Virus record (IMG/VR): IMGVR_UViG_3300044632_000653
Source of the DNA: a virus
Length of the DNA stretch: 64,000 nucleotides
Direction: 5' to 3' (one strand)
Shown: in pieces, positions 5,514 to 53,162 of the stretch
Layout of the letters: each line of letters begins with the position of its first letter
Numbering within the stretch: position 1 is the stretch's first letter
The notes under the pieces: generated by a model
The model's input: only the letters and a program-made list of their open reading frames with translations
What the model was told of the DNA's origin: nothing
Database searches by the model: none
Position numbers and translations under genes: made by a program

Positions 5514-6140
5514 ATGTCACAGTTCAGCATCGATGCGTTCCGTGCGAACCTCATCAACGGTCTTGCGAGGAACAACCTGTTCCTCGTCCAAGGCAACTTC
5601 CCAGGCGGCGGAACCAACGCCATCCAAGGTGCGGCTGCGGTTGCAGGTGCCCTTTTCGGCGGCGCAGTCGCAGGTGCGATCACCAATGTCGCAGCGGCTG
5701 TAGGCGGCGGAAACCCGAGTGCGCAGATTTCGTTCCTCTGCAAGTCCTCAAAGATTCCGTCCTCGACCATCGCCACCAACCAAGCGTTCTACATGGGTCG
5801 CCCGTTCAAGTATCCTGGCGACAAGACCTTCAGCGATTGGGGCATGAGCGTCTACAACGACGGCACCTACGGTCTCCGCAAGTCCTTTGAGGCTTGGATG
5901 AACCTGATGAACACCAACAGGACCAACATCGGTCCCAACGGTGTCAGCGGTTACATGACCGATTGGACCGTCACCCCGCTCACCCGTGAAGGCAATCCCA
6001 TCGCCCGATACAAGTTGATCGGTTGTTGGCCTACCACCATCGCAGAAACCACTCTCGACATGGCGGCGCAGTCCGAGCCTTCGACCTTCGATGTGACGAT
6101 TGCGTATCAGTACTTTGAAGTCGAAGGCGTGACCACCTGA
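5514..6140 (+). CDS. gp19: Tail tube protein gp19
   Basis: F.A.L..GLAR.NLF, SFLCK...P.S, GD.TF.DW, WPT motifs; follows the sheath gene. Confidence 0.92.
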   Translation: MSQFSIDAFRANLINGLARNNLFLVQGNFPGGGTNAIQGAAAVAGALFGGAVAGAITNVAAAVGGGNPSAQISFLCKSSKIPSSTIATNQAFYMGRPFKYPGDKTFSDWGMSVYNDGTYGLRKSFEAWMNLMNTNRTNIGPNGVSGYMTDWTVTPLTREGNPIARYKLIGCWPTTIAETTLDMAAQSEPSTFDVTIAYQYFEVEGVTT

Positions 6141-7680: not shown

Positions 7681-8412
7681 ATGGAAAAGAACCGTCTCAG
7701 GAACGCCATCGACAGCCTCGTCGGAAAGGATGCTCCCTCATTCAGGGGCTCCGTCCGCACCGAGTTGTTCTCACGCATCCACGGCACCTTCGACTCCCTC
7801 AGGCAGGAACTCTCTCGGGACATCATCTCGGAGAACCTTCCAGGTGCGCCTTCCGCTCCTCCCGTGACCAAGCCCATCAAGGCAGGGGACCTCAAGATCG
7901 TCCCGACCGCTGCGGGTGCCGCCAAGGATGATATGTCCCTCGACCCGAACTTTGAGAAGGAGTTCTTCCAATCCTCCTCGGACTACAAGGGTCAGCGCAT
8001 CACGGTCAAGCAGTTGGGCACGGGCTTCGGAAAGCCCGTGAGGATCTACATCAACGACCGCCGATGGGAGTTCTTCCCTGGTCCCAAGGTAGGGATCAAG
8101 GCTGCGAAGGACTACATCGACGGCATGGTGAAGGATGTCAGGAAGGATCCGCAACTCGCCGCTGCAATGACGGCGCAGATCGCAAAGGACAAGGCTGCGG
8201 GTGTATCGACCGTCGCAGCACCCGTTGATGCAGGTAAGCCGAACGAGGTCGCCGATGCGAACCTCAAGCAGAAGGAACTTGAGACGGGTCAGCCTGTCGG
8301 CAAGGGCAAGCCTCCTGCGCAGAAGCCACCCGCAGCAGCGAAACCGAAGGCGGCTCCCAAGCCACCTGCACCACCGAAGCCGAAGCCAACGAAGGAAGTG
8401 AAGCCGAAATGA
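7681..8412 (+). CDS. Hypothetical prohead-core-region protein with Pro/Lys-rich tail
   Basis: SD GGGGAG; located between portal and prohead protease, where T4 has gp67/gp68. Confidence 0.65.
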   Translation: MEKNRLRNAIDSLVGKDAPSFRGSVRTELFSRIHGTFDSLRQELSRDIISENLPGAPSAPPVTKPIKAGDLKIVPTAAGAAKDDMSLDPNFEKEFFQSSSDYKGQRITVKQLGTGFGKPVRIYINDRRWEFFPGPKVGIKAAKDYIDGMVKDVRKDPQLAAAMTAQIAKDKAAGVSTVAAPVDAGKPNEVADANLKQKELETGQPVGKGKPPAQKPPAAAKPKAAPKPPAPPKPKPTKEVKPK

Positions 8413-10678: not shown

Positions 10679-11323
10679 ATGAAACTCATCTGCGAGGTCA
10701 ACGAGGAGATCGAAGTCCTGACCGAGGAAAAGAACGGTCAGCGGCAGTACTTCATCGAAGGAACCTTCCTGCAAGGCGACATCAAGAACCGCAACGGTCG
10801 TGTCTACGAGTTCAAGATGCTCAAGGACAAGGTCGATCAGTACCGCAGGGAGTTCGTTGAGGCGAAGAGGGCGTTCGGTGAACTCGGTCACCCCGAGGGT
10901 CCGACGATCAACCTTGAGCGTGTCTCGCACATGATCATGGAACTCCATCCTGACGGCAAGAACTTCTACGGCAAGGCGAAGATCACCGACACCCCATACG
11001 GCAAGATCGTCAAGAACCTCATCGATGAGGGTGCGAAGTTGGGCGTGTCGAGCCGTGGTGTCGGCTCCCTTGAGGAGAAGAACGGTGCGTCCTATGTCAA
11101 GGATGACTTCCGCCTCTCGACCGCAGCAGACATCGTCGCCGACCCTTCCGCCCCCGAGGCTTTCGTGCGTGGCGTGATGGAAGGCAGGGAGTGGATCTAC
11201 GAGAACGGTCTCCTCGTCGCCAAGCAAGCCGAGGAGATCCGAAACAGCATCAAGAAGGCTTCTGCGAGAAAGTTGGAAGAGGCGAAGATCGCCGCTTTCA
11301 AGAGGTTCCTCGGAAGGCTTTGA
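10679..11323 (+). CDS. gp21: Prohead protease gp21
   Basis: FIEG.FLQ..IKNRNGRVY, GELGHP.GPTINL.RVSH, LGVSSRG.GSL, DIVADPSAP.AFV. Confidence 0.96.
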   Translation: MKLICEVNEEIEVLTEEKNGQRQYFIEGTFLQGDIKNRNGRVYEFKMLKDKVDQYRREFVEAKRAFGELGHPEGPTINLERVSHMIMELHPDGKNFYGKAKITDTPYGKIVKNLIDEGAKLGVSSRGVGSLEEKNGASYVKDDFRLSTAADIVADPSAPEAFVRGVMEGREWIYENGLLVAKQAEEIRNSIKKASARKLEEAKIAAFKRFLGRL

Positions 11324-17939: not shown

Positions 17940-18986
17940 TCAGTAGATGATGCCGCCTGTACTGACCATGCAATTATCGGACACAAACATCGCCTGTGCA
18001 AGAGTCTTCATGTTGTACGAAGGTTGCCATCCGAGGATGAGACGGGCTCGGGTCGAGTCGCCGAGGAGATATGGCACCTCGTTCGGACGGAACAGCCTCG
18101 GGTCGATGATGACATACTTTTCCCATGAGCCGAGATCCGCAGCGGAGAACACCTCGTCAAGGAACTCACGGACGGTGTATGTCTCTCCCGTAGCGATCAC
18201 ATAGTCGCTCGGAATGTCCTGTTGGAGCATGAGCCACATGGCATGCACATAGTCCGCTGCATGTCCCCAATCACGCTTTGCGTCGAGGTTGCCAAGACGG
18301 AGGTTCCTCTGAAGCCCGTGCTTGATCCTCGCAGCCGCCATCGTGATCTTGCGGGTGACGAAGGTCTCCCCACGGCGTGGACTCTCATGGTTGAACAGGA
18401 TGCCGCATGAGGCATGGATTCCATAAGCCTTGCGGTATGTCTGCACCATCTGATGGGCATACACCTTGGCGACGGCATACGGCGAGACGGGTTGCAGCGG
18501 GGACTGTTCGTTGAATCCCATCGGGCTCGTCGGGACCGAGTCGCCGAACATCTCCGAGGATGACGCTTGATACAGCCTCGTCTGCGGGGAGATCGTCCTG
18601 ATGGCGTTGAGGATGTTCAGGGTGCCGTTGCAGATGCCGTCCGAGGTGTACTCGGGGAGTTCAAACGAGACTGCGACATGGCTCTGTGCGGCGAGGTTGT
18701 AGACCTCGTCAACCTCGTACTCCATGAGGATGTTGGAGATGCAGGATCCGTCGTGCAGGTCGTAGTACTTGAGGATGAACCTCGGATCGTTCGTGAGGTG
18801 ATCGATCCTTCCCGTCGAGATGGTGGATGTCCTCCGCTTCAAGCCGATGACGGTGTAGCCCTTGCGGAGGAGGAGTTCGCTGAGGTACGAGCCGTCCTGA
18901 CCGTTCACGCCCGTGATGACGGCGGTCTTTCCGTTCGGGACGGGATCGGCGTTACTTGCGGATGGAGTCGTAGTTGCTTCTGACAT
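17940..18986 (-). CDS. gmd: GDP-mannose 4,6-dehydratase
   Basis: ITGVNGQDGSYL, YNLAAQSHV.VSF, YQASSSEMFG, SPYAVAK, GILFNHESPRRGETFVTRKI, LGNLDAKRDWGHA.DYV. Confidence 0.96.
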   Translation of the reverse strand: MSEATTTPSASNADPVPNGKTAVITGVNGQDGSYLSELLLRKGYTVIGLKRRTSTISTGRIDHLTNDPRFILKYYDLHDGSCISNILMEYEVDEVYNLAAQSHVAVSFELPEYTSDGICNGTLNILNAIRTISPQTRLYQASSSEMFGDSVPTSPMGFNEQSPLQPVSPYAVAKVYAHQMVQTYRKAYGIHASCGILFNHESPRRGETFVTRKITMAAARIKHGLQRNLRLGNLDAKRDWGHAADYVHAMWLMLQQDIPSDYVIATGETYTVREFLDEVFSAADLGSWEKYVIIDPRLFRPNEVPYLLGDSTRARLILGWQPSYNMKTLAQAMFVSDNCMVSTGGIIY

Positions 18987-19872
18987 GGTCGCAGGTTTCC
19001 TTGATGGCTGTCTTGATGTCGGTGAAATTGAAGTCGGGGTACGCCGCTCGGAACCTTGAGTTGTCCGTGGGCTTTCGGTATATGCCTTCGGGCATGTCCG
19101 TTTGGAAGACGATCTCGCCGTCGAATTCCATGGCTTCGGCGATCATCCAAACGATGTCCTTGATCCTGTACTCCTGAGACGGAGATACGATCATCTCTGT
19201 CGGCACGGACTCACGGTTGTCGGAGTGGATCGTGGTCAGGGCTCTTGCGATGTCGGGTGCGTACACGAATTCACGCAACGCATCTCCCGAACCCCACACG
19301 GCAAAGGGCGTTCTTTCCCTCTTGGCGAGGTAGCACTTGTGGATGAGGCTCGGGATGACATGCCCGTGCATGCAGTTGTAGTTGTCGTTCTTGCCGAAGA
19401 CATTGCAGGGGATCACGCATCGGACCTGCATGCTGCGGTCCTTGCGGAGGCATCGGGCACCGACCTCAAGCATCCTCTTGGCATAGGCATAGCCGAAGTT
19501 GGTGTGGTGCGGTTCGCCGAGGTGGAGGCTGTCCTCCGTGAGCGGATACTGAACCTGCGTGGGGAAGACGCAGGTCGAGAGTACGAATGTTGCGGAGTTC
19601 AGCAAAAACTCCCCGCAGACACGCATCACATTGGCGTTGATGGAGAGGTTGTTGCTGAAGAACTCAAAGGAGTGGCGGTCGTTCGCACGGACACCTCCGA
19701 CCGTGGCGGCAAGGTGGATGACCTCGCTGATCTCGTTGTCGGCGACGAACTCACGCAGTTGCCTGTAGTCGAGGAGATTGAGTTCCCTTGATGTGGGGGC
19801 GAGTGCGTATCCCGAAGGAATCTCGCTGCCGATCAGCCCGTGACCTCCCGTGATGAGGACATGCCTGTTCAT
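18952..19872 (-). CDS. fcl: GDP-L-fucose synthase
   Basis: ITGG.GLIG, HLAA.VGG..AN, STC.FP, N.GYAYAKR, HVIPSLIHK, VWGSG..LREF; adjacent to gmd. Confidence 0.93.
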   Translation of the reverse strand: MNRHVLITGGHGLIGSEIPSGYALAPTSRELNLLDYRQLREFVADNEISEVIHLAATVGGVRANDRHSFEFFSNNLSINANVMRVCGEFLLNSATFVLSTCVFPTQVQYPLTEDSLHLGEPHHTNFGYAYAKRMLEVGARCLRKDRSMQVRCVIPCNVFGKNDNYNCMHGHVIPSLIHKCYLAKRERTPFAVWGSGDALREFVYAPDIARALTTIHSDNRESVPTEMIVSPSQEYRIKDIVWMIAEAMEFDGEIVFQTDMPEGIYRKPTDNSRFRAAYPDFNFTDIKTAIKETCDHVRSNYDSIRK

Positions 19873-38591: not shown

Positions 38592-38944
38592 GCACTCCAT
38601 ATCGACCCCGAACAGAGGAAATTGGAGTTTGAAACCCACAGAAACCTCGTTTCCCCGCAAATAGAGGGGTGGGGACACCGTGGGGAGAGCGTGGATGAAG
38701 AAAGATAAGGAAAGAAACGAGAGGGAAGAGGGGGGAAGGACGGGGAAGGATCGGGAACCCCCGCAGTTCGCTAGGAACGATGGCGTGTTAGCCGTCGAGG
38801 CAAAAGCCGAAAAAATTGAGGGGTCTCGCCCTACCACATTCCACGCCCGTGTCAAGAAAAATCCACCAAGATTTTCAAAAAAGTTTCCATGAAAAAACCC
38901 CGAGATTTTCTCTCGGGGCTCTTGACTTTTCTCAAGTCATACTT

Positions 38945-39289
38945 TCAGAACTTCGGCTTGACTTCCCCCTCGTTGATCAGCCGCATGATCTCCTCGGTCG
39001 CCAACTTGTCGAAGTTCGACACCTCGTCGGGAGCCGTGGTCTCGGTGTCGTAGATGTGGCTGATCGTTTGGGTCGGTGGATCTATGAGAGCGACCGCTCC
39101 CGTGTATGAGAGCGAGAGTACAGGATCCTTCTTCCACGCTCCCGATGTCAGTTCGATGAACCGCTTGGCATCCACCCTGTGGTACTGACGGGTGTGAGCG
39201 TCCTGTGCGATGTGGATGGGATTCCCTATCGCCATGCCTATGGGTATGCCTATCTCTTGCAGGGATGTGTAGACCACTACCTGTGCCAT
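38945..39289 (-). CDS. Hypothetical protein
   Basis: AGGAG SD; downstream of the vWA gene. Confidence 0.55.
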   Translation of the reverse strand: MAQVVVYTSLQEIGIPIGMAIGNPIHIAQDAHTRQYHRVDAKRFIELTSGAWKKDPVLSLSYTGAVALIDPPTQTISHIYDTETTAPDEVSNFDKLATEEIMRLINEGEVKPKF

Positions 39290-39393
39290 GCGATGCTCCT
39301 GTCTGTTGGGGGTGCGTGTTGGGGGTATGAGAAGACCCACTCCCTCATCGTCCGAAGGGAGTGGGTCTCTTGGTGTCTCGTCTCGGCTCCTCG

Positions 39394-41943
39394 TCACTTG
39401 GCGAGGAGTTCGGCGACTCGGGTCATCAGCGGACGGTTGCCCTTGGTCGCAGCGAGTTGCTTGGCGAACTGATTGCGGAGGCTGCGGAGACCTGCGCCCG
39501 TGGTCGGGTCGGCGGTGAGGTTCACCGTCTCGCTCTTGCGGGTGGCGGGGAGCATGATGTACTCGTCGTAGCCCCGAGCGTCGTTGCCCTTGAGGTTCCA
39601 CCAACCCTTCTCGTTCCATGCCGCCGTCACTTCCTTGGCGAGTTGCTTGCGGCGGTCCATGTACGCCGAGTATCCCTTGCCCGAGAGGGCGTTGAGTTCG
39701 GCGTTGTTCTGAAGGATGCGCTGCACGGCGTTGCCGCCGTCGATCAGGTGGATGCAGACCACCTTGCCGCCGACTCGGTCTCGGAAGAGTTGAGCCATGA
39801 CTCCCGTCTGCGTCTCGGTGTTCAGCGGGGTCTCCAAGACCTTCGTGCGGTCGTAGTACTGCTGCTCACGCTTCGTCATCGTGTATTCCTTGCCCGACTT
39901 CTTGTCACGCATGACGATCCTCGGAGCCTCGGTGTAGTTCTTGTCGGCGTATGCCTTCGTCGCCGTCACCGTCAGGCAGAGGTTGTCGGTCGATTCGCCG
40001 TCCGTCAGGACGATCATGTTGACCAACTGCACCCGCTTGGTCGCCTTGAACTCCTGCGCCACCTGCGAGAGACCGAGGAGGGCGGTGTTGTTCGGAGTGT
40101 GACCGATCAGGTTCGCCCACGGGATCGTGTGCTGAAGGTTGCCGAGGGCGTAGCAGAGACCGTTCTTGTCACCGACAGCAGCCGTGGCGGCGTTGCCGCC
40201 ACCGTTGCCCATCTTGTACGAGACGGCGAGGAGGAGACCTGCCGTCGTGTTGAACTCGGTGAGGCTCATGCCGTCCTCAAGGAGGGTGAGGAGGCGAACC
40301 CGCTCACCCTTGGTCTCGGTGTTCTTGTAGGTCTCGCCGAGATCGTCAAGGCTTGCGACATCGGTGAACCCGTAGAAGCGGTAGGGGATGTTGACTCGGC
40401 GGCAGAAGGCGGCGAGGGTCACCATCTGAACCACCGTGTCGTGGATGATGCCGCTCATCGATGCCGAGAGGTCGAGGAGGAGCATGAGACCGTGGTTCTT
40501 GCCGTCCTTGACATAGGCGTTGGAGGCGAAGATCTCATCCGAGATCTTGTAAGCCCACAGGCGGCTCGGGTCGATGCTGCCCGTCTCGGCGACCGCCGTG
40601 CGGCGGTGTTCGTCAGCAGCCTTGCGGCGGTCGAACTCGGTAGCGAGGACCTGCACCGCCGAGGTGTTCTCGGTTCGCCATGCCGCCATCATCTCGGCGG
40701 CGACCTCGGCGACCGTCTTGTTGGTCCGAGCCGTGCGGAGGTTGGCGACCTTCTTGAGGTCCTCGGCGACCCGCTTGCGGGGGACGATGAACCCCTTGCC
40801 GACCTCGGGGAGGTCTGCGTAGTGGGTGACCGTGGCGGCATCGTCGGTGCGACCGAGGAGGGCATCCTCGACCTCCCGCAGGGTACGAGCCATGGGAGCC
40901 TGACCCTCGTCGTTGTCGCTCTCGTCGTTGTCGCTCTCGTCGGTCTCGGTCTCGTCGCCGTCAGCGTCAGCGTCCCCGTCCTCTTCGGTCGAGGGCTTGT
41001 CAGCGTCAGCGTCGGTCTCTTCACCGTCAGCGTCGGTCTCTTCACCGTCAGCGTCAGCGTCGGTCTCTTCACCGTCAGCGTCAGCGTCGGTCTCGTCGGC
41101 TTCGGTCTCGTCGCCGTCAGCGTCGGTCTCGTCGGCTTCGGCATCGTCACCGTCAGCCTCGTCGGCTTCGGTCTCGTCGCCGTCCTCGTCGCCGTCAGCG
41201 TCGGTGTTGGCGGTCTTCTTTTCTTCCTTCTCCTCGTCGCCGTCAGCGTCGGTCGGAGTCGGGGTCCCGCCCTCTTCGCCTTCCTCGTCACCTTCCTGCG
41301 GCTCACCCCCGTCACCCTTCTCGGGCTCGGGGCGACTCTTGTTCTGAGCCTTAGCGAACTCGTAGATCTCTTTGGCGAGTTCGACCGCATCTTCCCATGT
41401 GAGGGTCGTTGCAGCCCGTTGGGCGAGGGCGAGTTCGTCGGCGGCGAAGGGGACCTCGACAAGCCAACCGATCTTGTACTGAATGTTGATTCGGTCGATG
41501 AGAGCGAGGTCGGCGAGGTTGCCGACCTTGGCGAGACCGAAGAGGTCGGTCTCCTTCATCCACCGATACCCCTTGGCGAAGTCGGTCTTCGTGCCAGGGA
41601 ACCGAGCCTTCATCAGGCGTTCGATTCGGACATCCTCGGTGACATTGAGGTAGTCCTTGGCGACCATCGGGTTCCTCGGGTCGATCCGCTTGCAAGCCTC
41701 AATCAGCGCATCCTTCCCGTTGGGAGTGTGGAGGGCGTGAGAGACTTCGTGAGCGATCAGCATGTCGCCCGTAGCCTCAGGCATGTCCTTCCACACGGGC
41801 ATGGTGAGGGTGCGGGTCTCGACATTGAAGGATGCCGTCTTCGCCCGAGGGTCGTGTTCGACCTTGATGTTTTCGGTCGCCATCAGCCGTGCGAGGCGGT
41901 CCTTGGCGGCGGCGAGGGCGGTGGTGGTCGTGAGGGTGGTCAT
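39394..41943 (-). CDS. CobT-like protein: HExxH peptidase-like N-domain, acidic linker, vWA domain
   Basis: LARLMATENI.V, AHEVSHALHTP, NVTEDVRIER, MIDAS DLSASM, LTDGE. Confidence 0.85.
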   Translation of the reverse strand: MTTLTTTTALAAAKDRLARLMATENIKVEHDPRAKTASFNVETRTLTMPVWKDMPEATGDMLIAHEVSHALHTPNGKDALIEACKRIDPRNPMVAKDYLNVTEDVRIERLMKARFPGTKTDFAKGYRWMKETDLFGLAKVGNLADLALIDRINIQYKIGWLVEVPFAADELALAQRAATTLTWEDAVELAKEIYEFAKAQNKSRPEPEKGDGGEPQEGDEEGEEGGTPTPTDADGDEEKEEKKTANTDADGDEDGDETEADEADGDDAEADETDADGDETEADETDADADGEETDADADGEETDADGEETDADADKPSTEEDGDADADGDETETDESDNDESDNDEGQAPMARTLREVEDALLGRTDDAATVTHYADLPEVGKGFIVPRKRVAEDLKKVANLRTARTNKTVAEVAAEMMAAWRTENTSAVQVLATEFDRRKAADEHRRTAVAETGSIDPSRLWAYKISDEIFASNAYVKDGKNHGLMLLLDLSASMSGIIHDTVVQMVTLAAFCRRVNIPYRFYGFTDVASLDDLGETYKNTETKGERVRLLTLLEDGMSLTEFNTTAGLLLAVSYKMGNGGGNAATAAVGDKNGLCYALGNLQHTIPWANLIGHTPNNTALLGLSQVAQEFKATKRVQLVNMIVLTDGESTDNLCLTVTATKAYADKNYTEAPRIVMRDKKSGKEYTMTKREQQYYDRTKVLETPLNTETQTGVMAQLFRDRVGGKVVCIHLIDGGNAVQRILQNNAELNALSGKGYSAYMDRRKQLAKEVTAAWNEKGWWNLKGNDARGYDEYIMLPATRKSETVNLTADPTTGAGLRSLRNQFAKQLAATKGNRPLMTRVAELLAK
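40905..41250 (-). repeat. Coding tandem repeats (DADGEET/DADGDETEA, DNDES) in the acidic linker
   Basis: Repeated cgtcagcgtcggtctc(ttcac/gtcg) units. Confidence 0.85.
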
Positions 41944-42087
41944 GGTTTGGGTTCTCTCTTCACCTAGAGAATACCAAACCCCCTATGGTTTGCAACCTTT
42001 TACGGTGCATGGGCTTGGATTTTCCTATCTTTTCCCGAGGTTTTCGTCCACGGTCGGATTCCGTTAGGTACTCGGCGCATAGCGAGG

Positions 42088-42410
42088 AAGGTCCGATAAC
42101 CTTGTGGACAACTAGGGGGTCTTGACAGCAAGCACCGAAGGTGGTAAGATGGATGCGGACCCCTAAAGTGGCGTATAAAAAAATGCTGCCCCCTTCATTG
42201 TACCATGCCGAGCCGCCCGTTGTCAATGGCAAATCGGGGGAAAATTCCAAGAATTTTGTGGTCGGGGGGTCTTGACAGCGACCGTAGGGGTATGGTACAA
42301 TGAAGGGGGCGACACAAATTTTTAGCCACGCTTGGGGGTCCGCATCCATCTTACCATACCAAGCCGCCTGTTGTCAAGTTCCCAAGTTATCCACAAGGTT
42401 ATCGGACCTT
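42088..42410. repeat. Nested imperfect inverted repeat carrying four sigma70 promoters and DnaA-box-like sites
   Basis: Arm pairs 42088-42113/42385-42410, 42142-42163/42335-42356, 42188-42206/42292-42310; TTATCCACA at 42387-42395. Confidence 0.9.
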
Positions 42411-42590
42411 GAACGCCGCTTGGCGGCTCGCCGTGGCTCGCCGAGGGCTCACATAAATCCATGTTTTTCCTACCTTTTCGGTACGGAATACCCCTAACGA
42501 GTTGACATGGGATAGGGGTTTGCTACCTTATAGGTGATGAGAGAGGCACTCTCAACTCCCACTCGCACCCTTCAGACGGAGGCTCCGACC

Positions 42591-43859
42591 ATGTCCCTCA
42601 CCCGCCTACAGCAGCAGTTTGTGGATGCCGCCCGTGTGGCATACCCGAACCGCACCGACCTCACGATGCAGGAGGTCCTCGCCGTCTGTAAGACGGCAGG
42701 GATGAACCTCCCGCAATGGCTCACCAACGACCGTCAGTATCGGGTCAAGCGAGGCTTGTACCGCCTCCCGACCGCCGAGGCTCCTGCGGTCAAGGCTGCG
42801 GTCGCCACCGCCCCCAAGACGGTGGCTGCGGCTGTCGCCGAGCCGAGGAAGACCGAGGTCGATGCCTCCCTCGCCTTCATGGGCGGGGCATCGCTCGTCC
42901 CCGCCAAACTCCCGACCTATGTCCCCTTCGGCGCACACGCCGACCTCAACAAGGTCATCAAGAGCCGCCGCTTCTACCCCGTGTACATCACGGGTCTCTC
43001 GGGCAACGGCAAGACCACGACGGTCGAACAGGCTTGCGCCGAGAACGGGCGTGAGTTCTTCCGAGTGAACATCACCCCCGAGACCTGCGAGGACGATCTC
43101 CTCGGCGGCTTCCGTCTCCTCAACGGCGAGACGGTGTGGGTCGATGGTCCCGTGGTGGTCGCCATGAAGCGGGGCGGCATCCTCCTCCTTGACGAGATCG
43201 ACCTCGGCACGATCAAGGTGATGTGCTTGCAGCCTGTCCTTGAGGGCAAGCGGGTCTTCATCAAGAAGACCAACACTTGGGTCGCCCCTATGGAGGGCTT
43301 CAATGTCATCGCCACGGGCAACACGAAGGGCAGGGGCGACGATACGGGCAAGTTCGTCGGAACGAACTGCATGAACGAAGCCTTCCTCGACCGCATCGGC
43401 GAGACGGTCGAGCAGGACTACCCGCCCGAGGCAGTCGAGGTCAAGATCGTCAACGCCAACCTCAAGGCGGTCGGTGTGGTCGGTCAGGAGACCTTCGCCA
43501 CCGCCTTGGTCAAGTGGGCGGCATCGATCCGCAAGACCTTCGCCGAGGGCGAGGGCGACGAGGTGATCACCACCCGCCGCTTGGTTCAGGCTGCGAACGC
43601 CTACGCCATCTACGGCGACCGCCTCAAGGCTGTCGAGAAGGTCACGACTCGGTTCGATGCGGTGACCAAGGCGGCGTTCATCGACCTCTACAAGAAGTTG
43701 GATGCCGAGGCTACGGCTGCGGCTGCTGCCGAGGTCGCTGAAGCCGAGCGTCTCGCACAGGCTCCGACCGCTCAACAGGTCACGCTTCCGAACACGGTGA
43801 CCACGGCTACGGCTGCGACCACGACCACGGCTGCGACCACTACGGGTTGCCCGTTCTGA
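42591..43859 (+). CDS. CobS/MoxR-like AAA+ ATPase
   Basis: FYPVYITGLSGNGKT, EDDLLGGFRL, LLLDEIDL, CLQPVLEGK, T.NTKG.G..G.F.GTN..NEAFLDR, ITTRRL. Confidence 0.92.
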   Translation: MSLTRLQQQFVDAARVAYPNRTDLTMQEVLAVCKTAGMNLPQWLTNDRQYRVKRGLYRLPTAEAPAVKAAVATAPKTVAAAVAEPRKTEVDASLAFMGGASLVPAKLPTYVPFGAHADLNKVIKSRRFYPVYITGLSGNGKTTTVEQACAENGREFFRVNITPETCEDDLLGGFRLLNGETVWVDGPVVVAMKRGGILLLDEIDLGTIKVMCLQPVLEGKRVFIKKTNTWVAPMEGFNVIATGNTKGRGDDTGKFVGTNCMNEAFLDRIGETVEQDYPPEAVEVKIVNANLKAVGVVGQETFATALVKWAASIRKTFAEGEGDEVITTRRLVQAANAYAIYGDRLKAVEKVTTRFDAVTKAAFIDLYKKLDAEATAAAAAEVAEAERLAQAPTAQQVTLPNTVTTATAATTTTAATTTGCPF

Positions 43860-43911
43860 TCTTCTCACGAAGAGAGGAGTGGGGTTGAGCCTCCGACTCC
43901 TCTAGTGCCTC

Positions 43912-43949
43912 CCCCCTGCATCGACAACGGTGCAGGGGGTTTTCTTTTT
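43912..43949 (+). terminator. Intrinsic terminator after the AAA gene
   Basis: CCCCCTGCATCG..CGGTGCAGGGGG then TTTTCTTTTT. Confidence 0.75.
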
Positions 43950-44491
43950 GGAGTAGAGGTACACGGCAAGCGGATCGAAATCGGACAACGGCTACGGAAG
44001 CATGAGAGCCATGAGAGCCGAGTCGAGTCGAGCCGAGTCGAGTCATGCTCAAGTCATATGGAAACGGATACGAAATGTCGATGGGGGGTTTATATTTTCA
44101 CGGTACACGGCGTGGAGCCTCGGGGCGGCGAAGACCCTCTCCCACCCATCTCCTCCGAGGAAAACTCCAATTTCCCAACCGCTCTCCCGCTCACTCTCTC
44201 CGTTCCTCTGTTATTCTCCAATCATCACCCGATCATCACCCATCACCGCCATGGATCCCTCCTCCAAGCATCTCCCATCTTCCCTCCCGTCTTCCCTCCC
44301 TCTTTCCCAAAGAAAATCGAAGACCCCCCCTCCCCCCACGGGGGTGGGTTCATCCGTTTACCTCCCCTACCCTCAAAAATTTTCTTGCCGTGACGAGCGT
44401 TTTTACAGGTTGAACTCCAACTTTCCCGATGTCACTCCCGATGGCACTCTCAACGGAGACAGAGAATCTAAATAAGAAAGGAAACCCCTCG

Positions 44492-47216: not shown

Positions 47217-48548
47217 ATGCACAGGATCATCTCGTCCTTCTGCGCCATGGCTCTCGTAGCCTTCGCAGCCGTCACGACCGCCGCAGCGCAGGTGGTCGTG
47301 CCCCCGAGCATCGTCACGCAGCCCGATGGAACCCTGCGGTTGGTCCCCGTGCCACCCGCAACGGTGTACACCCCGTATGTGATCGACCCGAGCATCAAGT
47401 ACAGGCTCGTCATGGAGTCGGGTTGGTCGAACGCCGATTGGCAGGGCAAGACCCGCAACGGTCAGGTCGCCTTGAAGGACCGTGAGATCACGGTTGACCT
47501 GATGGCGATGCCGCTGACGAGGACCGCCGTGATCGACGGCAAGACCGTGACCCTCTTCAGCGTCTTCCGCTCGGCGGATGTCTGCATCGGTTGGGACAAC
47601 ACGAAGTTGGAACTCCTCCCGCTCGGTCCCCAAGGGACGGCGTTCGACGCATCCGTCTTCAACGGGTCGAAGTCGAGGTTGGACCGCATCTCCCCCGCAG
47701 AGGGCGAGGGCTCCGCTCAGGGTGTCGCAGTCCTCCATGCCGAGGTCCTGCCCCCGCCGCAGGAGAGGACCCCCGCACTCCGACCCGACTACTACAGGTG
47801 GAACATGGGAGGATTCCTGTGGCAGGGCGGCTACCGACTCGTAGCCAAGTTGCGGTTCCGAGTGCGGGATGACTTCTACTACCCTGTGCAGTCGAGGACC
47901 GACATACGGATCCTCCCCACCGTCTCCCATGGCGGTGTCGAGTACGCCACCAAGATCGACGGGAGCCCGACCAAGGGGACGAATGTCCTCGGCGAGACGA
48001 GGAGCAGCGTGAACGGCATCCTCTTCGGTGTCGGTCCCGAGTACAAGGTCACCCACTCGCTCGTCGCTCCCGCCGTCAAGGCGAAGGTCGGCGACATCGT
48101 TCCCGTGAAGGTACTCGTATCCTCCGAGACCAAGCCGCAGCGGCTGCACTCGGTCGCCACCAACTTCGCATGGGATCCGTCCAAGTTGGAGTTCATGGGC
48201 ATCTCCACCACGGGATCGCTCTCGTTCCAACAGAACAACCTTCCCTTCGTGGGGGCGGGGAACATCAACGAGGCGACCGTGCCCAAGGACGGGACGGCTG
48301 CGCACAATTGGCTGTGCCGCCTCGGGACGAGGACCGTGGTCACGGGCGGCGGTCTCGTCGCCACGCTGAACTTCAAGGTCGTGTCGGAGTTCGACACGGC
48401 GGCGGTCGAGATCCTCGGCAAGGACGATCCCCGACTCGTCGGCGTGTTCGTGTTGGACGAGTCGGGCATCCTCGGCAGCGACATCCCAGGCGTCTTCGTC
48501 ACGGGAACGAAGGTCAATGCCGTCGTGAAGGGTCCTCTCTCGCCGTGA
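47217..48548 (+). CDS. Secreted protein with two cohesin-like domains
   Basis: Signal peptide; ITVDL..ADVCIGWDNTKLEL..LVAKLRFRV and VGDIVPVKV..VATNFAWDPSKLEF..LVATLNFKV. Confidence 0.7.
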   Translation: MHRIISSFCAMALVAFAAVTTAAAQVVVPPSIVTQPDGTLRLVPVPPATVYTPYVIDPSIKYRLVMESGWSNADWQGKTRNGQVALKDREITVDLMAMPLTRTAVIDGKTVTLFSVFRSADVCIGWDNTKLELLPLGPQGTAFDASVFNGSKSRLDRISPAEGEGSAQGVAVLHAEVLPPPQERTPALRPDYYRWNMGGFLWQGGYRLVAKLRFRVRDDFYYPVQSRTDIRILPTVSHGGVEYATKIDGSPTKGTNVLGETRSSVNGILFGVGPEYKVTHSLVAPAVKAKVGDIVPVKVLVSSETKPQRLHSVATNFAWDPSKLEFMGISTTGSLSFQQNNLPFVGAGNINEATVPKDGTAAHNWLCRLGTRTVVTGGGLVATLNFKVVSEFDTAAVEILGKDDPRLVGVFVLDESGILGSDIPGVFVTGTKVNAVVKGPLSP

Positions 48549-48589
48549 TCCATGGGTGATCGATGGTTTCACGGGGATACATACTTCCC

Positions 48590-48901
48590 GTGAGGTCGTT
48601 CAAGTCATACATCTCCGAGGGACCGTACTCGTTCAAGGACTTCAAGGATCCTTGGGCTGTCATGTCGCCCGAGGACCGCAAGGAAGCGAACCGCCTGTTC
48701 AAGGCGGCGATGAAGGCGTTCCCTTCCTCCATGCGGCAGAAGGAACTGCAAGCCAAGTTGTTCGCCCTCCTCGACAAGTATGGGATAGGGAAGACAAAGG
48801 TTGCCGAGGATTGGTCGAAAGAGTACAAGGCTTCGATCAACTGCAACAACCCCAAGGGCTTCTCGCAACGGGCGCATTGCCAAGGCAGGAAAAAGGGATG
48901 A
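48590..48901 (+). CDS. Putative internal head protein
   Basis: GTG start, leader RSFKSYISE; C-terminal WS..YK.SI.CNNPKGFSQRAHCQGRKK module known from T4-like phages. Confidence 0.7.
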   Translation: MRSFKSYISEGPYSFKDFKDPWAVMSPEDRKEANRLFKAAMKAFPSSMRQKELQAKLFALLDKYGIGKTKVAEDWSKEYKASINCNNPKGFSQRAHCQGRKKG

Positions 48902-50202
48902 AGTCATATCACGAACTCGTAATGTTCCTTGAGAACAGCGGTGTGATGAGGTTCACCGAGCGTGGACTCTCGTCCTATCTCAGTTCGGCAGAGCGCATGG
49001 TCAAGGATGCTCAGGCGAGGAGCGGAGACTTCGCACGGATGCAGGACGCACAGATCGCAGCAGTCCTCGGGCATCTCATATCCCATATCACCCGAATCGT
49101 GAACACCGTTCCGAAGGACACGGATCCGAAGGCAGTCGGCATCGCACGGAAACTCCTCTCGCTCGGCGGCAAGGCTGCGAGCGTCAAGAAGGCATTCGAT
49201 GACCTCAGCCGCAGCGGTGCGGCGATTGCTGCGAGGATGACCTCCGAACTGCAAGGCAAGTACGACATGCGGTTTGAGTCATATGATGGAGCGCATCCCT
49301 ACGAGATTGAGCGTGATCGGATCACCAAGGAAACAGTAGCCGCAGCAAAGGCAAGGGGATCGTCAAGGACGCAGGGAGAGAAACTTGCCAAGATAGAGAT
49401 AGAACGATGGAAGAAGGCAGAAGGCAAACACTTGTATTCCGACTTCACGAACCGACAATTTCGTGCAGCAACGGATCAGGAGAAACGAAACGAAGAGCGT
49501 GAAGCGCAAGCAAAGCAAGAAATCTCCCGAATGTTCTCTGATGCTGACAGGCTACTTGTAGCCGCAGGGTTCAAGTTGGAGCGTGGTCCTCAAGGCGGAA
49601 GCCAGTCACGCTATTACACCGATGGTAAAATCAAGGTCCGTATTTCGGACCACGAAGTTCCCATGACTGCGGAGCGTCAACACAACAGGACGGTCAGCGG
49701 CAGGAATCCATGGTTTGAATTCATATTTGGTGAACGAGATAGAGCAGGTGTCCTACGAGTGAATCCGAAGGAGTTGCAGCACTTGCGTGATTGGATTGGT
49801 GATCTGAAGGAAATGCGATCCGAATCCCACGACCCCAAGCACATTGACGAGACTGCCTACGGAGTGTTCTCCAACTACCTCGGTTCCTCCATGATGTCGT
49901 TCGTGCAGACGAAACAGCATGAGTTGGATCGCAGGACCGACAAACTCACGAAGGCTCTCGCCCGTGTGCATGCACAAGGGGCTGCGGGAGTCCAAAGGGA
50001 CCTCGGCTTGCCATTCGCACAGGTCAGCCTCGACGGGGTGGAGTTCCGTCCGCACAGGGGTGGCGTGAGGAAACTCCTCGTCCGATTCAACCCGAACGGG
50101 ACCCTCGGGATCAACGCCGATGGGAAGACGGTGGCGAACTCCGCAGCCCTGCGTGACATCGGTCCCCTCATGGCGAAGATCGTCGGCGGCGGATTCGCAT
50201 AA
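48898..50202 (+). CDS. Putative modular internal head polyprotein
   Basis: Leader MKSYHELVMFLE; linkers FESYD, SESHDPKHIDE; S.SRY..KVRISDH module. Confidence 0.65.
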   Translation: MKSYHELVMFLENSGVMRFTERGLSSYLSSAERMVKDAQARSGDFARMQDAQIAAVLGHLISHITRIVNTVPKDTDPKAVGIARKLLSLGGKAASVKKAFDDLSRSGAAIAARMTSELQGKYDMRFESYDGAHPYEIERDRITKETVAAAKARGSSRTQGEKLAKIEIERWKKAEGKHLYSDFTNRQFRAATDQEKRNEEREAQAKQEISRMFSDADRLLVAAGFKLERGPQGGSQSRYYTDGKIKVRISDHEVPMTAERQHNRTVSGRNPWFEFIFGERDRAGVLRVNPKELQHLRDWIGDLKEMRSESHDPKHIDETAYGVFSNYLGSSMMSFVQTKQHELDRRTDKLTKALARVHAQGAAGVQRDLGLPFAQVSLDGVEFRPHRGGVRKLLVRFNPNGTLGINADGKTVANSAALRDIGPLMAKIVGGGFA

Positions 50203-50278
50203 GATCACCGCATAAACGCAGAAACTGAAGACGAACCCCCTTGATGGTTATCGGTAATGAGTGGTAACCTCACAGACC

Positions 50279-50959
50279 ATGAACAAGACTTTCATGCGTA
50301 ACCTTGCCGAGAACATCGCCCTCAACTCTCTTCGCCACGGCGGTCTCCTGCCGAAGCATCAGGTCATCGTGGACCGTCAGGACTCGGACCCATCCACGGT
50401 CCTCGGCAAATGGGACGGGAAGATTCCGTTCGGTCCACCTGCACCAAACGCAAGTGTGGAGACCGTCATGGAACTCAACCACATCGTTGAAGGTCAGACA
50501 CTCGCATCGAAGGAAGAGATCGAATTCAGTCTCTCTATCGACAAGCCGAGGAACCACTACGAATGGTGGAGCAGGGAGGTCGAGTCCCTCACGGGCAGGA
50601 GGCACTCACCCGACAGGCTCTACATGATCGCCGACATGGCTGAGGGATTCCTCCTGCGGCTGAAGGCGCACTTCGACCGACCGAGACCGTATCAACTCGG
50701 TCCCCACCTCGGGAAGCGCATCCACATGTTCCTGCCCGACCCGAGGACACCTTCGTATCCATCGGGTCACTCGTTCGACGCATACCTGATCGCACTCACA
50801 CTCAGCGACGAGCATCCCGAGCATCACGAACGCCTCTTTGAACTCGCCGACACAGTCGGGGTTACGAGGATCATCGGGGGAGTCCACTACTCCTCCGACA
50901 TCACGGCGGGTCGCAACGCCGCCATCATCGCACACCGCATCATCAAGGGAATGAAATGA
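50279..50959 (+). CDS. PAP2-family phosphatase
   Basis: K.HFDRPRP, SYPSGH, R..GGVHY.SD motifs. Confidence 0.85.
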   Translation: MNKTFMRNLAENIALNSLRHGGLLPKHQVIVDRQDSDPSTVLGKWDGKIPFGPPAPNASVETVMELNHIVEGQTLASKEEIEFSLSIDKPRNHYEWWSREVESLTGRRHSPDRLYMIADMAEGFLLRLKAHFDRPRPYQLGPHLGKRIHMFLPDPRTPSYPSGHSFDAYLIALTLSDEHPEHHERLFELADTVGVTRIIGGVHYSSDITAGRNAAIIAHRIIKGMK

Positions 50960-51267
50960 CAACCCCGAGCCCGAGGGACACCTTCGATGTGGACGATCCG
51001 TTCGCAGAGAACTTCTCGTTTGAGGTGACCGACAATCCCGAGGAGATCGTTCGCACCGTCGAGGGGAAGATGGAGACGCAGCGTGACGCTGCGATCAGGA
51101 TCCATGCGGAGAGCATGGCGCAGGTCGAGAAACTCATACTCCCCCTGCTCAACAACCTGATGAAGAACCCCGACAAGGCGTACATCAAGTGGGAGAATAG
51201 GGTCCCCGCAATCAAGACGCAGATCTCCAAGATCACGGCGATCACCCGCAAGCCGCTCGACTGCTGA
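50956..51267 (+). CDS. Conserved phage hypothetical protein
   Basis: ILPLL.NL.KNPDK.YI.W.NR...I motif. Confidence 0.7.
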   Translation: MTTPSPRDTFDVDDPFAENFSFEVTDNPEEIVRTVEGKMETQRDAAIRIHAESMAQVEKLILPLLNNLMKNPDKAYIKWENRVPAIKTQISKITAITRKPLDC

Positions 51268-51491
51268 AATAAGAAGACCCCCCGTGCGCAACGAGGGGTC
51301 TTCCGATTATAGCCCCGCTAGTTCGGGGACTTTATGGCGAGTTTTACTTCGCCTCACGATGCCTTCTAGTTGGCACGGTGCGGTCGCCTGTCCGTGGGTA
51401 CCCGTGGACGGGCTCTTTTCCCTTGCATGTATGTATGGAGGTCGAGAGGTGGGGATGCTCTAAATACTCCACACATACGAAAGGGAAATCC

Positions 51492-51758
51492 ATGTACATC
51501 GACCGCAGGACATTGAGGCAGTTGGTTGAGTCGGCGAACGGCATCGGCGACACATCCACACGACAGATCACCGAGGGCTATGAGAAGAAGATCATCTCTT
51601 ACCTTGAGGATGGGGGCTTCAAGAAGGGCGACGCATGGTTCGACATGGGAACCCTTTATGTGAGCAGCAAGGGCTTGGTCGAAAAGGCGAAGACCATCCT
51701 CAAGAAGAAGAGGGACATTTTTGAGTTGCCGAAGATCGTCGTGGACAAGACCTCGTAA
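51492..51758 (+). CDS. Putative internal head protein
   Basis: TAAATA box; leader TLRQLVES...QITE. Confidence 0.6.
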   Translation: MYIDRRTLRQLVESANGIGDTSTRQITEGYEKKIISYLEDGGFKKGDAWFDMGTLYVSSKGLVEKAKTILKKKRDIFELPKIVVDKTS

Positions 51759-51770
51759 GGATCCGACACC

Positions 51771-52088
51771 ATGAAGAACTACCGTGAGTTCATCACCGAG
51801 ACCTTCGATTCCTTCAAGGTGTTCAAGCACAAGGCGAACGCCAACGAGGAGGATTCCGAGTACGGCATCAGGGCTCTGATCCGATACACCCATGTTCTTC
51901 CCTCGGGTGAGAAGACGGTCATCACCTCTCTCTTTCCTCCGATCCAACTGAGGACAACGGACAACAAATACCAGTTCAATCGCCATCTCAACGCAATGGT
52001 TGCGAGTCTCAAGGCTGAAGGCAGGGAGATCCTCGGCATCCACATGAGAGGTGATCCACTCTACGACAGGCTTATGAAAAGGGGGTAA
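51771..52088 (+). CDS. Putative internal head protein
   Basis: Leader MKNYREFITE, close to the T4 CTS MKTYQEFIAE. Confidence 0.7.
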   Translation: MKNYREFITETFDSFKVFKHKANANEEDSEYGIRALIRYTHVLPSGEKTVITSLFPPIQLRTTDNKYQFNRHLNAMVASLKAEGREILGIHMRGDPLYDRLMKRG

Positions 52089-52091
52089 GAC

Positions 52092-53162
52092 ATGGCAGTA
52101 CTCAAGCACTACAACCCGATCACGCACGACATCTACCACTACCCGTTCCCTGCGAATCAGACGAGCGGAGGGGTCACGCCTGATGGCTACAGCAGCGAGT
52201 CTCAGACCTACGGCATCGTGGATTGGTCGGGCACCCGTTGCCTCGACCGCTACCTCTGTAGGGCGATTGGTAACAGCCCCTTCCTCACGATTCCCTACGA
52301 CATCACAAGCGTGAACTTTTGGAACCAATGCACCTATGCAGCGGTGCTGATCAGTCCACGCCATGCCCTCGTCTGTCAGCACTTCCGTGGAGCGCACAGC
52401 GACCCGAACATCAACACGGGAGGAATCAGGTTCTTTGGCAAGGGGGGCAGCATGTACGAGAACAGGGTGACCCGTGTGTACCTTGATGTCGGACCCGACC
52501 TGACGCTGCTTGAGTTCCTTCAGCCGTTCCCCGATGCGGATCTCAAGATCTACAACAGGATCGCAGACCCGCTCTACATCCCCTCAGGGACTCCCCTGTG
52601 GACCAAGGACAGCAACGGCAAGGTATACAAGACGGTGTTCGACAAGGCGAACTACAACCCCAACACAGATGACACCTACGGCTACTCGTTCCGTCCGTCC
52701 CTCGACGGTGTGAACGACGGCGCATATCAGAACGGTACCCTCGCCATCTTCGTCGGCGACTCTGGTTCGCCCGTGATGGTCCGTGACTCATACGGCGAAA
52801 CCGTATTCGTAGGACTTCAGTACGGCGGTCAGTCGATCAACCGTGCCACCTTCAGCCGCTTGGTGTCGATCCTTGCTCCCTTCAACTACTCCTTGGAGCA
52901 TGTGAAACTCTCCGCTAAGAAGGAAGACATCAATCAGGATGGCAAGGTTGATGCGGAGGACCTTGCCCGTGTCCTCGCTAGTTGGGGTCAGACGAAGGAT
53001 CCGTTCTCGGACATGGACGGAGACGGCAAGGTCGATGGCATCGACATCAGTCTCCTGATGAATGCGTGGGGCTCGTACACGATTCCTACTAGCGCACAGT
53101 CCACGATTCAGCCGCCGATCATCCCTCCTCCCACGGAAACGAACACGAAGCCTCGCTCCTGA
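52092..53162 (+). CDS. Trypsin-like serine protease with C-terminal dockerin
   Basis: AVLISPRHALVCQH (His), DLTLL (Asp), GDSGSP (Ser); DINQDGKVDAEDLARVLASWG..DMDGDGKVDGIDISLLMNAWG. Confidence 0.85.
   Translation: MAVLKHYNPITHDIYHYPFPANQTSGGVTPDGYSSESQTYGIVDWSGTRCLDRYLCRAIGNSPFLTIPYDITSVNFWNQCTYAAVLISPRHALVCQHFRGAHSDPNINTGGIRFFGKGGSMYENRVTRVYLDVGPDLTLLEFLQPFPDADLKIYNRIADPLYIPSGTPLWTKDSNGKVYKTVFDKANYNPNTDDTYGYSFRPSLDGVNDGAYQNGTLAIFVGDSGSPVMVRDSYGETVFVGLQYGGQSINRATFSRLVSILAPFNYSLEHVKLSAKKEDINQDGKVDAEDLARVLASWGQTKDPFSDMDGDGKVDGIDISLLMNAWGSYTIPTSAQSTIQPPIIPPPTETNTKPRS

Follow-up and report, generated by a model that had tools for sequence, protein, structure and literature searches.

A mirror-symmetric set of four strong promoters with DnaA-like boxes in a T4-like lake phage, possibly a doubled transcriptional-interference device

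Between two divergent genes of a T4-like lake phage lies a mirror-symmetric, gene-free set of four strong promoters: four near-consensus sigma70 promoters form two facing (head-to-head) pairs in mirror image, with DnaA-like boxes at both ends. By analogy with a bacterial promoter switch, we tentatively take this element to be a doubled transcriptional-interference device for host RNA polymerase. All coordinates refer to the window, the whole 64,000-nucleotide stretch of viral DNA (IMGVR_UViG_3300044632_000653) that was analysed.

Results

Layout of the four-promoter element

The window, found in lake-water metagenomes and 57% G+C, belongs to a T4-like myovirus. None of the sequencing runs listed for it is of RNA, which has no bearing on whether it is expressed. 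Its terminase, sheath, portal, scaffold and major head protein match T4-type families, and a CTAAATA-type promoter precedes its late genes. The element sits in the gap between a leftward vWA gene (39394-41943, minus strand; phrog_459, 849 aa, a peptidase/vWA-type partner) and rightward cobS (42591-43859, plus strand; phrog_249, AAA_5), which encodes a CobS-like MoxR AAA+ ATPase.

The four promoters of the original prediction were all recovered, each with 10-11 of 12 consensus matches and with the TG before the -10 that had been claimed for it. The outer promoter P1 (42122-42150, plus) faces the inner promoter P2 (42197-42226, minus), which points towards vWA; the inner promoter P3 (42272-42301, plus), pointing towards cobS, faces the outer promoter P4 (42348-42377, minus). 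Both -10 to -10 gaps are 46 bp, the spacing that had been given as ~46 bp. A central A/T inverted repeat (42241-42257) lies between the inner -35 boxes and is probably a shared UP-type element. Shuffling the window 150 times produced no facing pair, compared with two in the real sequence, and the element folds as a single strand with z = -15.8.

The vWA gene and cobS also have promoters of their own, at 41968-41995 (minus) and 42502-42529 (plus). These belong to a weaker class common to other early genes, so the four central promoters, which are closer to consensus than the gene promoters, are extra; the gap thus holds six, four central and one for each flanking gene. A T-tract repeat (42020-42034, plus) upstream of the vWA promoter has a second copy at 42465-42479, and both are kept in all versions of the element. 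No terminator-like site that could stop the outer transcripts was found within the gap.

An assembly artefact can be ruled out: single contigs bridge the element unchanged in four lake runs, three of which were not flagged as the source. Nor is there a credible gene inside, as had been predicted, since the sole recurring reading frame (42300-42497) behaves as non-coding. That frame has 13 synonymous and 80 non-synonymous codon changes (171 and 71 for cobS), and two relatives have it shifted or cut. The element had also been placed where early genes diverge. This holds for the leftward arm, while the rightward arm is cobS alone, followed by a terminator (43912-43939) and then a late-type promoter at 44468.

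Boxes and spacings are kept while spacers drift

Conservation in relatives was one of the checks originally proposed, and seven distinct versions were found in phages with 86-97% CobS identity, together with two further near-copies. All versions keep the central A/T inverted repeat and the -35 and -10 boxes, apart from one damaged -35 in L188, and the -10 to -10 gap is 45-47 bp in 14/14 modules. The first bases after each -10 are kept as well. Start sequences share 55-85% identity between genomes, compared with 42-50% for the spacers, and the middle of the gap is also free to change. P1 and P4 have an A-type start in all seven versions and P3 has a B-type start whose 10 bases after the -10 are invariant, while P2 is B-type in four versions and A-type in three.

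Changes in length come in ~11-bp steps. The centre, from -35 to -35, measures 45-46 or 34-35 bp, one helical turn apart, and the two DnaA-like boxes are 273-287 bp from each other (284 or 273, a change of 11 bp). The distance from DnaA-like box to outer -35 stays at 9-11 bp throughout, which ties the boxes to the promoters. Between L009 on one side and L011 and L188 on the other, an 11-nt loop in the middle of the gap is inverted, and start sequences have been swapped among promoter copies; together these point to occasional recombination between repeats. Because the pairing is not the same in every genome (P1 pairs with P4 in four versions and with P2 in three), we read the element as protein-binding sites on double-stranded DNA, not as a conserved fold. 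Among the interpretations first offered for it, a functional site for host RNA polymerase gains from the conservation of boxes and spacing in seven versions. The other 29 vWA/cobS gaps, from sister loci, contain no facing promoters, and on these sequences the device is an elaboration within one subclade.

DnaA-like boxes and a second, more widely conserved motif

The promoters are enclosed by inverted arms, as predicted, although each arm is 30 nt long and not 26 bp (93% complementary). The left arm (42088-42117) holds a TTATCGGAC motif at 42091-42099 (minus) and a DnaA-like box at 42103-42111; the right arm (42381-42410) holds TTATCCACA at 42387-42395 and the TTATCGGAC motif at 42399-42407. 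The right box is, as claimed, the sole perfect TTATCCACA in 64 kb and the left box has one mismatch. In four other versions the left box is perfect, in L188 the right box is lost, and 13 of the 14 arms have a box within one mismatch.

The second motif, TTATCGGAC, is more widely conserved than the DnaA-like box. It occurs down to a CobS identity of 46%, in 27 of 35 divergent vWA/cobS gaps of a non-redundant set. Exact matches number 34 in 13.7 kb of gap sequence and 13 in the 345 kb flanking it, and the best reading of the motif is a phage operator or iteron. In three gaps it forms the core of an operator-like spaced palindrome. Spaced palindromes of the TAAGT-N15-ACTTA type, including these three, occur in the vWA/cobS gaps of L096, L143, L144, L052 and L100 and are probably the operator of the vWA/CobS pair.

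Perfect DnaA boxes are present in 10 of the 35 gaps (14 in 13.7 kb) and absent from 345 kb of flanks. Four distant phages have perfect boxes and lack the four promoters, which favours real DnaA sites; the DnaA-like box also resembles the core of the phage operator. On balance we think that DnaA probably binds these boxes, with some reserve. Near the vWA or cobS promoters of distant relatives, some of which have the genes in tandem order, perfect boxes were seen at L036:5916, L044:5893, L112:5611, L115:3746 and L148:653 and 664.

The flanking gene pair

The fold of CobS is closest to NorQ/CbbQ. Its small N-terminal domain (42591-42776), three helices and a hairpin, is confidently predicted on a flexible linker and is a candidate DNA-binding domain; matches to helix-turn-helix-like structures were weak (Z at most 3.8), and no named Atlas family matched it at a useful score. 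The T4-like cyanophages and pelagiphages Syn9 and HTVC008M share the peptidase and cobS families with the window, at ~50% identity for CobS. In those phages the two genes lie in tandem within the replication block, whereas in the window they are divergent and have moved into a bordered island. A search of the vWA/cobS gap DNA against cultured phages gave no match, and an Rfam scan of the window and 12 loci returned one tRNA and nothing else.

A bordered island and a possible terminal repeat

The element lies in the middle of an island of 4.9-5.7 kb (5.5 kb around the element itself) with conserved borders, seen in the window (38617-44415) and in L001, L013, L023, L026, L104 and L109. The left border (38617-38780, plus) consists of a conserved GGAAATTGGA word and, after it, the stretch that is richest in purines in the whole window. 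The right border (44089-44415, plus) is a non-coding block, base-by-base conserved in places, with GTGGAGCCTCGG at 44112, TCCAATTT at 44166, a pyrimidine tract and TTTTACAGG at 44401. The left word at 38617 and its inverse on the right at 44166 are conserved, 4.9-5.7 kb apart, in 11 loci with 60-100% CobS identity, and the two border blocks have opposite purine skew. Sister clades without the four promoters have the same borders. Within the right border block, the minus strand at 44326-44340 reads six G, one A and seven G, a G-quadruplex-prone word. Words of this kind occur at some R-loop primers.

In four runs, contig depth inside the island was 1.6-2.3 times the median of contigs to the right. 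This comparison used contigs and started at 39400, to the right of the left border; as a contig figure the depth is coarse, strain variation can halve it, and the runs possibly come from one campaign. A two-copy model of the island accounts reasonably well for the depth of single-copy DNA and for how far contigs spanning the left border are diluted. Contig ends cluster in the right border, where the depth step also falls: 9 of 26 lie within a 100-nt stretch of it, compared with 1.1 expected. Some of this clustering is due to sequence that is hard to read, as several contigs break off at a C-run 250 nt beyond. Together these data are a hint, and only that, that the island is a terminal repeat of ~5 kb or a pac site with ~3% redundancy. 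For the L023 phage (protein P0032) there are two assemblies, of 174,991 and 169,572 nt; the difference of 5,419 nt is near the length of the island, 5,672 nt.

A long terminal repeat is unusual for T4-like phages. Repeats of 229 bp have been claimed for one phage of the T4 superfamily (PMC5349666), and the literature searched contained no T4-like phage with a terminal repeat of several kilobases. The nearest likeness is the first-injected terminal repeat of T5 (Repeat Regions 2 and 3; NC_005859; 10.1101/866236), in which, as in the window, non-coding inverted repeats with DnaA boxes lie between divergent arms, and a purine-skewed block stands near the repeat end as at the island borders. That block (L267:9980-10200) is purine-rich, closes the T5 repeat and has a polarity opposite to the island blocks. 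T5 boxes are found at 6121 and 6194; in all T5 has a series of eight, spread over two repeat regions far from each other (10.1101/866236). The island has two. T5 differs further in being a siphovirus with proven ends and two-step entry, while the window phage is T4-like and its repeat a hint only. A scan at 10/12 matches found no facing promoter pair in T5.

Single facing pairs recur in other phages

When viral contigs were scanned with a pattern for one facing pair, 76 stretches matched. The gaps of the 68 distinct pairs are unevenly distributed, 36 at 34-39 bp and 15 at 44-49 bp, with peaks at 36-38 and 44-47, and 21 of the 68 have a perfect -35, TG and -10 on both sides, beyond what the pattern demands. 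These pairs, found in dozens of unrelated phages (viral contigs L192-L266), occupy promoter-rich early regions, sometimes with three at one locus (L228:284-380, 7840-7934 and 10729-10823, for example). A G+C-rich hairpin often lies within the gap, in gut phages among others, and a further promoter follows 33 of the 68 pairs. Two pairs adjoin T5 A2/D5-like genes; these T5-like loci had no useful relative when searched against cultured phages. No perfect DnaA boxes were found near the facing pairs of other phages, and an Rfam scan of ten of these loci gave no match.

The facing-pair pattern gave 19 matches in 596 Gb of bacterial genomes, compared with a rough chance estimate of 13 (viral set, 5). 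With bacterial matches so near chance, that pattern does not by itself mark the 44-49 bp class as enriched in phages. From sequence comparison, the half-unit, a single facing pair, is a recurring phage element, and the doubled, box-capped form is special to the phages described here.

Discussion

The interference reading and its closest precedent

In the reading that we tentatively favour, two mirror-image convergent-promoter modules would serve one gene arm each, P2 (towards vWA) being opposed by P1 and P3 (towards cobS) by P4, at ~34 bp from start to start. Polymerases would collide, and the kinetically stronger promoter would silence its partner. Host DnaA, a phage operator-binding protein or both, bound one helical turn upstream, may tune P1 and P4, and such tuning would gate read-through into both island arms, possibly the DNA that goes into the cell first. 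The sequences show the boxes, how these are spaced and conserved, the asymmetry between promoters and the surrounding genes; that the promoters are transcribed and interfere, which protein is bound, and that the island is a terminal repeat, we infer.

The precedent is the helD switch of Bacillus subtilis, in which facing promoters, defined by a 45-55 bp gap, interfere as shown experimentally: a stronger antisense promoter displaces polymerase from a slower sense promoter until the antisense promoter is blocked in turn (Sudzinova et al. 2026, PMC12802891). As in helD/pps, the element has facing housekeeping-type promoters with 45-47 bp between the -10s, an extended -10, unequal partners and a position upstream of a gene. 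For helD a start-site spacing of 39 bp works and one of 22 bp does not (PMC12802891); the ~34 bp of the element, which assumes that +1 is the seventh base after the -10, lies between these values. The element differs in having two mirror-image copies of the module between DnaA-like and operator-like sites, and in being carried by a lytic phage; it is not the sole promoter of the next gene, its opposing transcript has no terminator, and its genes are not rifampicin-resistance genes. It therefore resembles helD in geometry and is not a member of that class.

Spacers drift, yet neither the boxes nor the gap of 45-47 bp do, and this counts for interference; the fixed start types, one for the outer promoters and the other for P3, are as expected of unequal partners. 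The constant distance from DnaA-like box to outer -35 and the spread of the operator-like TTATCGGAC motif among the gaps also speak for it. Against it, P2 tolerates either start type, the predicted ~34 bp from start to start falls short of the 39 bp of helD, promoters that belong to vWA and cobS themselves lie downstream of the device, and in 29 sister loci the gene pair does without it. Unlike in helD, the outer transcripts meet no terminator and may simply read into the opposite arm. The further promoter after 33 of the 68 pairs elsewhere suggests that such pairs do something else than drive the gene that follows.

Alternative explanations

The same promoters could instead prime replication, as originally proposed: facing polymerases would melt the DNA or leave G-rich R-loops, with DnaA as a helper, and in the boldest form the forks would stop at the two purine-skewed borders and copy the island only. 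T4 origins do use promoters, three of them at strand switches (PMC3016281), and lambda couples convergent promoters to its origin (PMC3985674). The ~11-bp steps of the indels and the invariant G-rich start of P3 agree with this, and we infer that both border blocks have their G-rich strand on the leading-strand template for forks born in the centre. T4 oriF, oriG and oriE are likewise gene-less promoters at a transcription switch in a T4-like phage; each, however, has one promoter and an A+T-rich unwinding element, and none is described with facing promoters or DnaA boxes (PMC3016281). The element shares with such origins a promoter at a transcribed-strand switch; an AT-rich unwinding tract, a box array and a skew shift were not found. 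The element is 51-62% G+C, its longest A/T run is 6-11 nt and the T-tracts are absent in L189. It has two boxes, one of them lost in L188, no DnaA-trio run in nine copies and at most two GATC. The skew check that had been suggested gave a fourfold-site GC skew of about -0.2 for plus-strand genes on both sides, hence no shift across the element, within 64 kb and with the proviso that recombination-driven replication can blur skew. Sister clades lack the four promoters, and the T5 DnaA boxes, in a similar setting, have been argued not to serve replication (10.1101/866236), so that we hold a bidirectional origin to be doubtful. A polymerase anchor or sink at a genome end, with complexes on the four promoters and DnaA holding, pulling or timing the entering DNA, or capturing host polymerase in the first minute, is in our view unlikely. 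It would give the symmetry a use, as promoters would point inward whichever repeat copy is read, and it draws on the conserved island borders, the roughly twofold contig depth over the right flank, the clustered contig ends and the matching layout of the first-injected T5 repeat. The four promoters are also nearer to consensus than those of the genes, and near-consensus promoters favour slow escape. Yet the contig depth is coarse and can be split by strain variation, the C-run accounts for part of the clustering, T5 has no facing pair, and sister clades have the borders without the device. The sink that had been proposed is weak on numbers, four sites being few, and T4 itself is circularly permuted (PMC3016281).

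Other readings fare less well. The products may be what matters, whether as complementary short RNAs made by each pair or, where the starts form inverted repeats, as hairpin RNAs. Starts are indeed better conserved than spacers, and facing pairs of gut phages enclose G+C-rich hairpins; but the middle of the gap is unconserved, and even inverted between relatives, the RNAs would end without terminators and Rfam offers no match, which leaves this very unlikely. All versions fold strongly (z -5.9 to -17), starts that pair share 81-100% identity inside one genome and one 11-nt loop is inverted between relatives, as a cruciform, a hairpin promoter on single-stranded DNA or a switch that inverts between the 30-nt arms would have it. 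Frpo of plasmid F and the M13 minus-strand origin are single-stranded hairpin promoters, and the element, like the Frpo type, has inverted -35/-10 copies able to rebuild a promoter in a hairpin. Its pairing partners are not conserved, however, and a T4-like phage enters as double-stranded DNA. Partners change between genomes, spacers do not pair and single changes in L308 are uncompensated, all of which weakens the case for a cruciform under selection. In every version the asymmetric core points the same way, and for the contigs of four runs no joint that changes strand is listed (contigs drop rare forms), contrary to an invertible segment; we give this group of structures scarcely any weight. 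Local expansion of promoter copies by recombination, adding strong promoters with no special mechanism, would explain the restriction to one subclade and the swapped starts. Extra promoters, though, would not need the fixed gaps, the box distance or the head-to-head order and would be hindered by them, and facing pairs recur at preferred gaps in unrelated phages; this explanation we find highly improbable.

Broader meaning

A wider reading, which we think quite unlikely, joins several of these threads: a clade of T4-like lake phages would have given up circular permutation for a fixed ~5 kb repeat carrying vWA/CobS, with the four promoters of the subclade and DnaA acting on the DNA itself and the single facing pairs elsewhere as simpler forms. 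A local two-way bubble might then stop at the purine-skewed borders and so duplicate the repeat, or genome entry might be anchored and timed, and the single pairs might belong with the device to one class of polymerase-collision elements that is as yet undescribed. Should the island prove to be a long terminal repeat with fixed ends, the clade departs from the textbook circular permutation of T4-like phages, and it would offer a second system for the role of host DnaA boxes in phage terminal repeats and for the duplication of long repeats.

In the literature searched, outside which most subscription papers lie, neither the element nor the recurring facing pairs of phages are described. Convergent-promoter switches are known singly, as in helD and in phage 186, whose pR/pL is among the older relatives of the helD switch; a lytic phage with such a switch doubled in mirror image and joined to DnaA-like sites did not appear in that literature. 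Tests of the device can do without the phage, given how near its promoters come to the sigma70 consensus.

Additional observations in the window

The late region at 47217-53162 contains genes with cohesin-like, PAP2 and dockerin-like domains, and L009, L023 and L308 keep the same order. In the early region, two nucleotide-sugar epimerase/dehydratase genes lie in tandem at 17940-19872.
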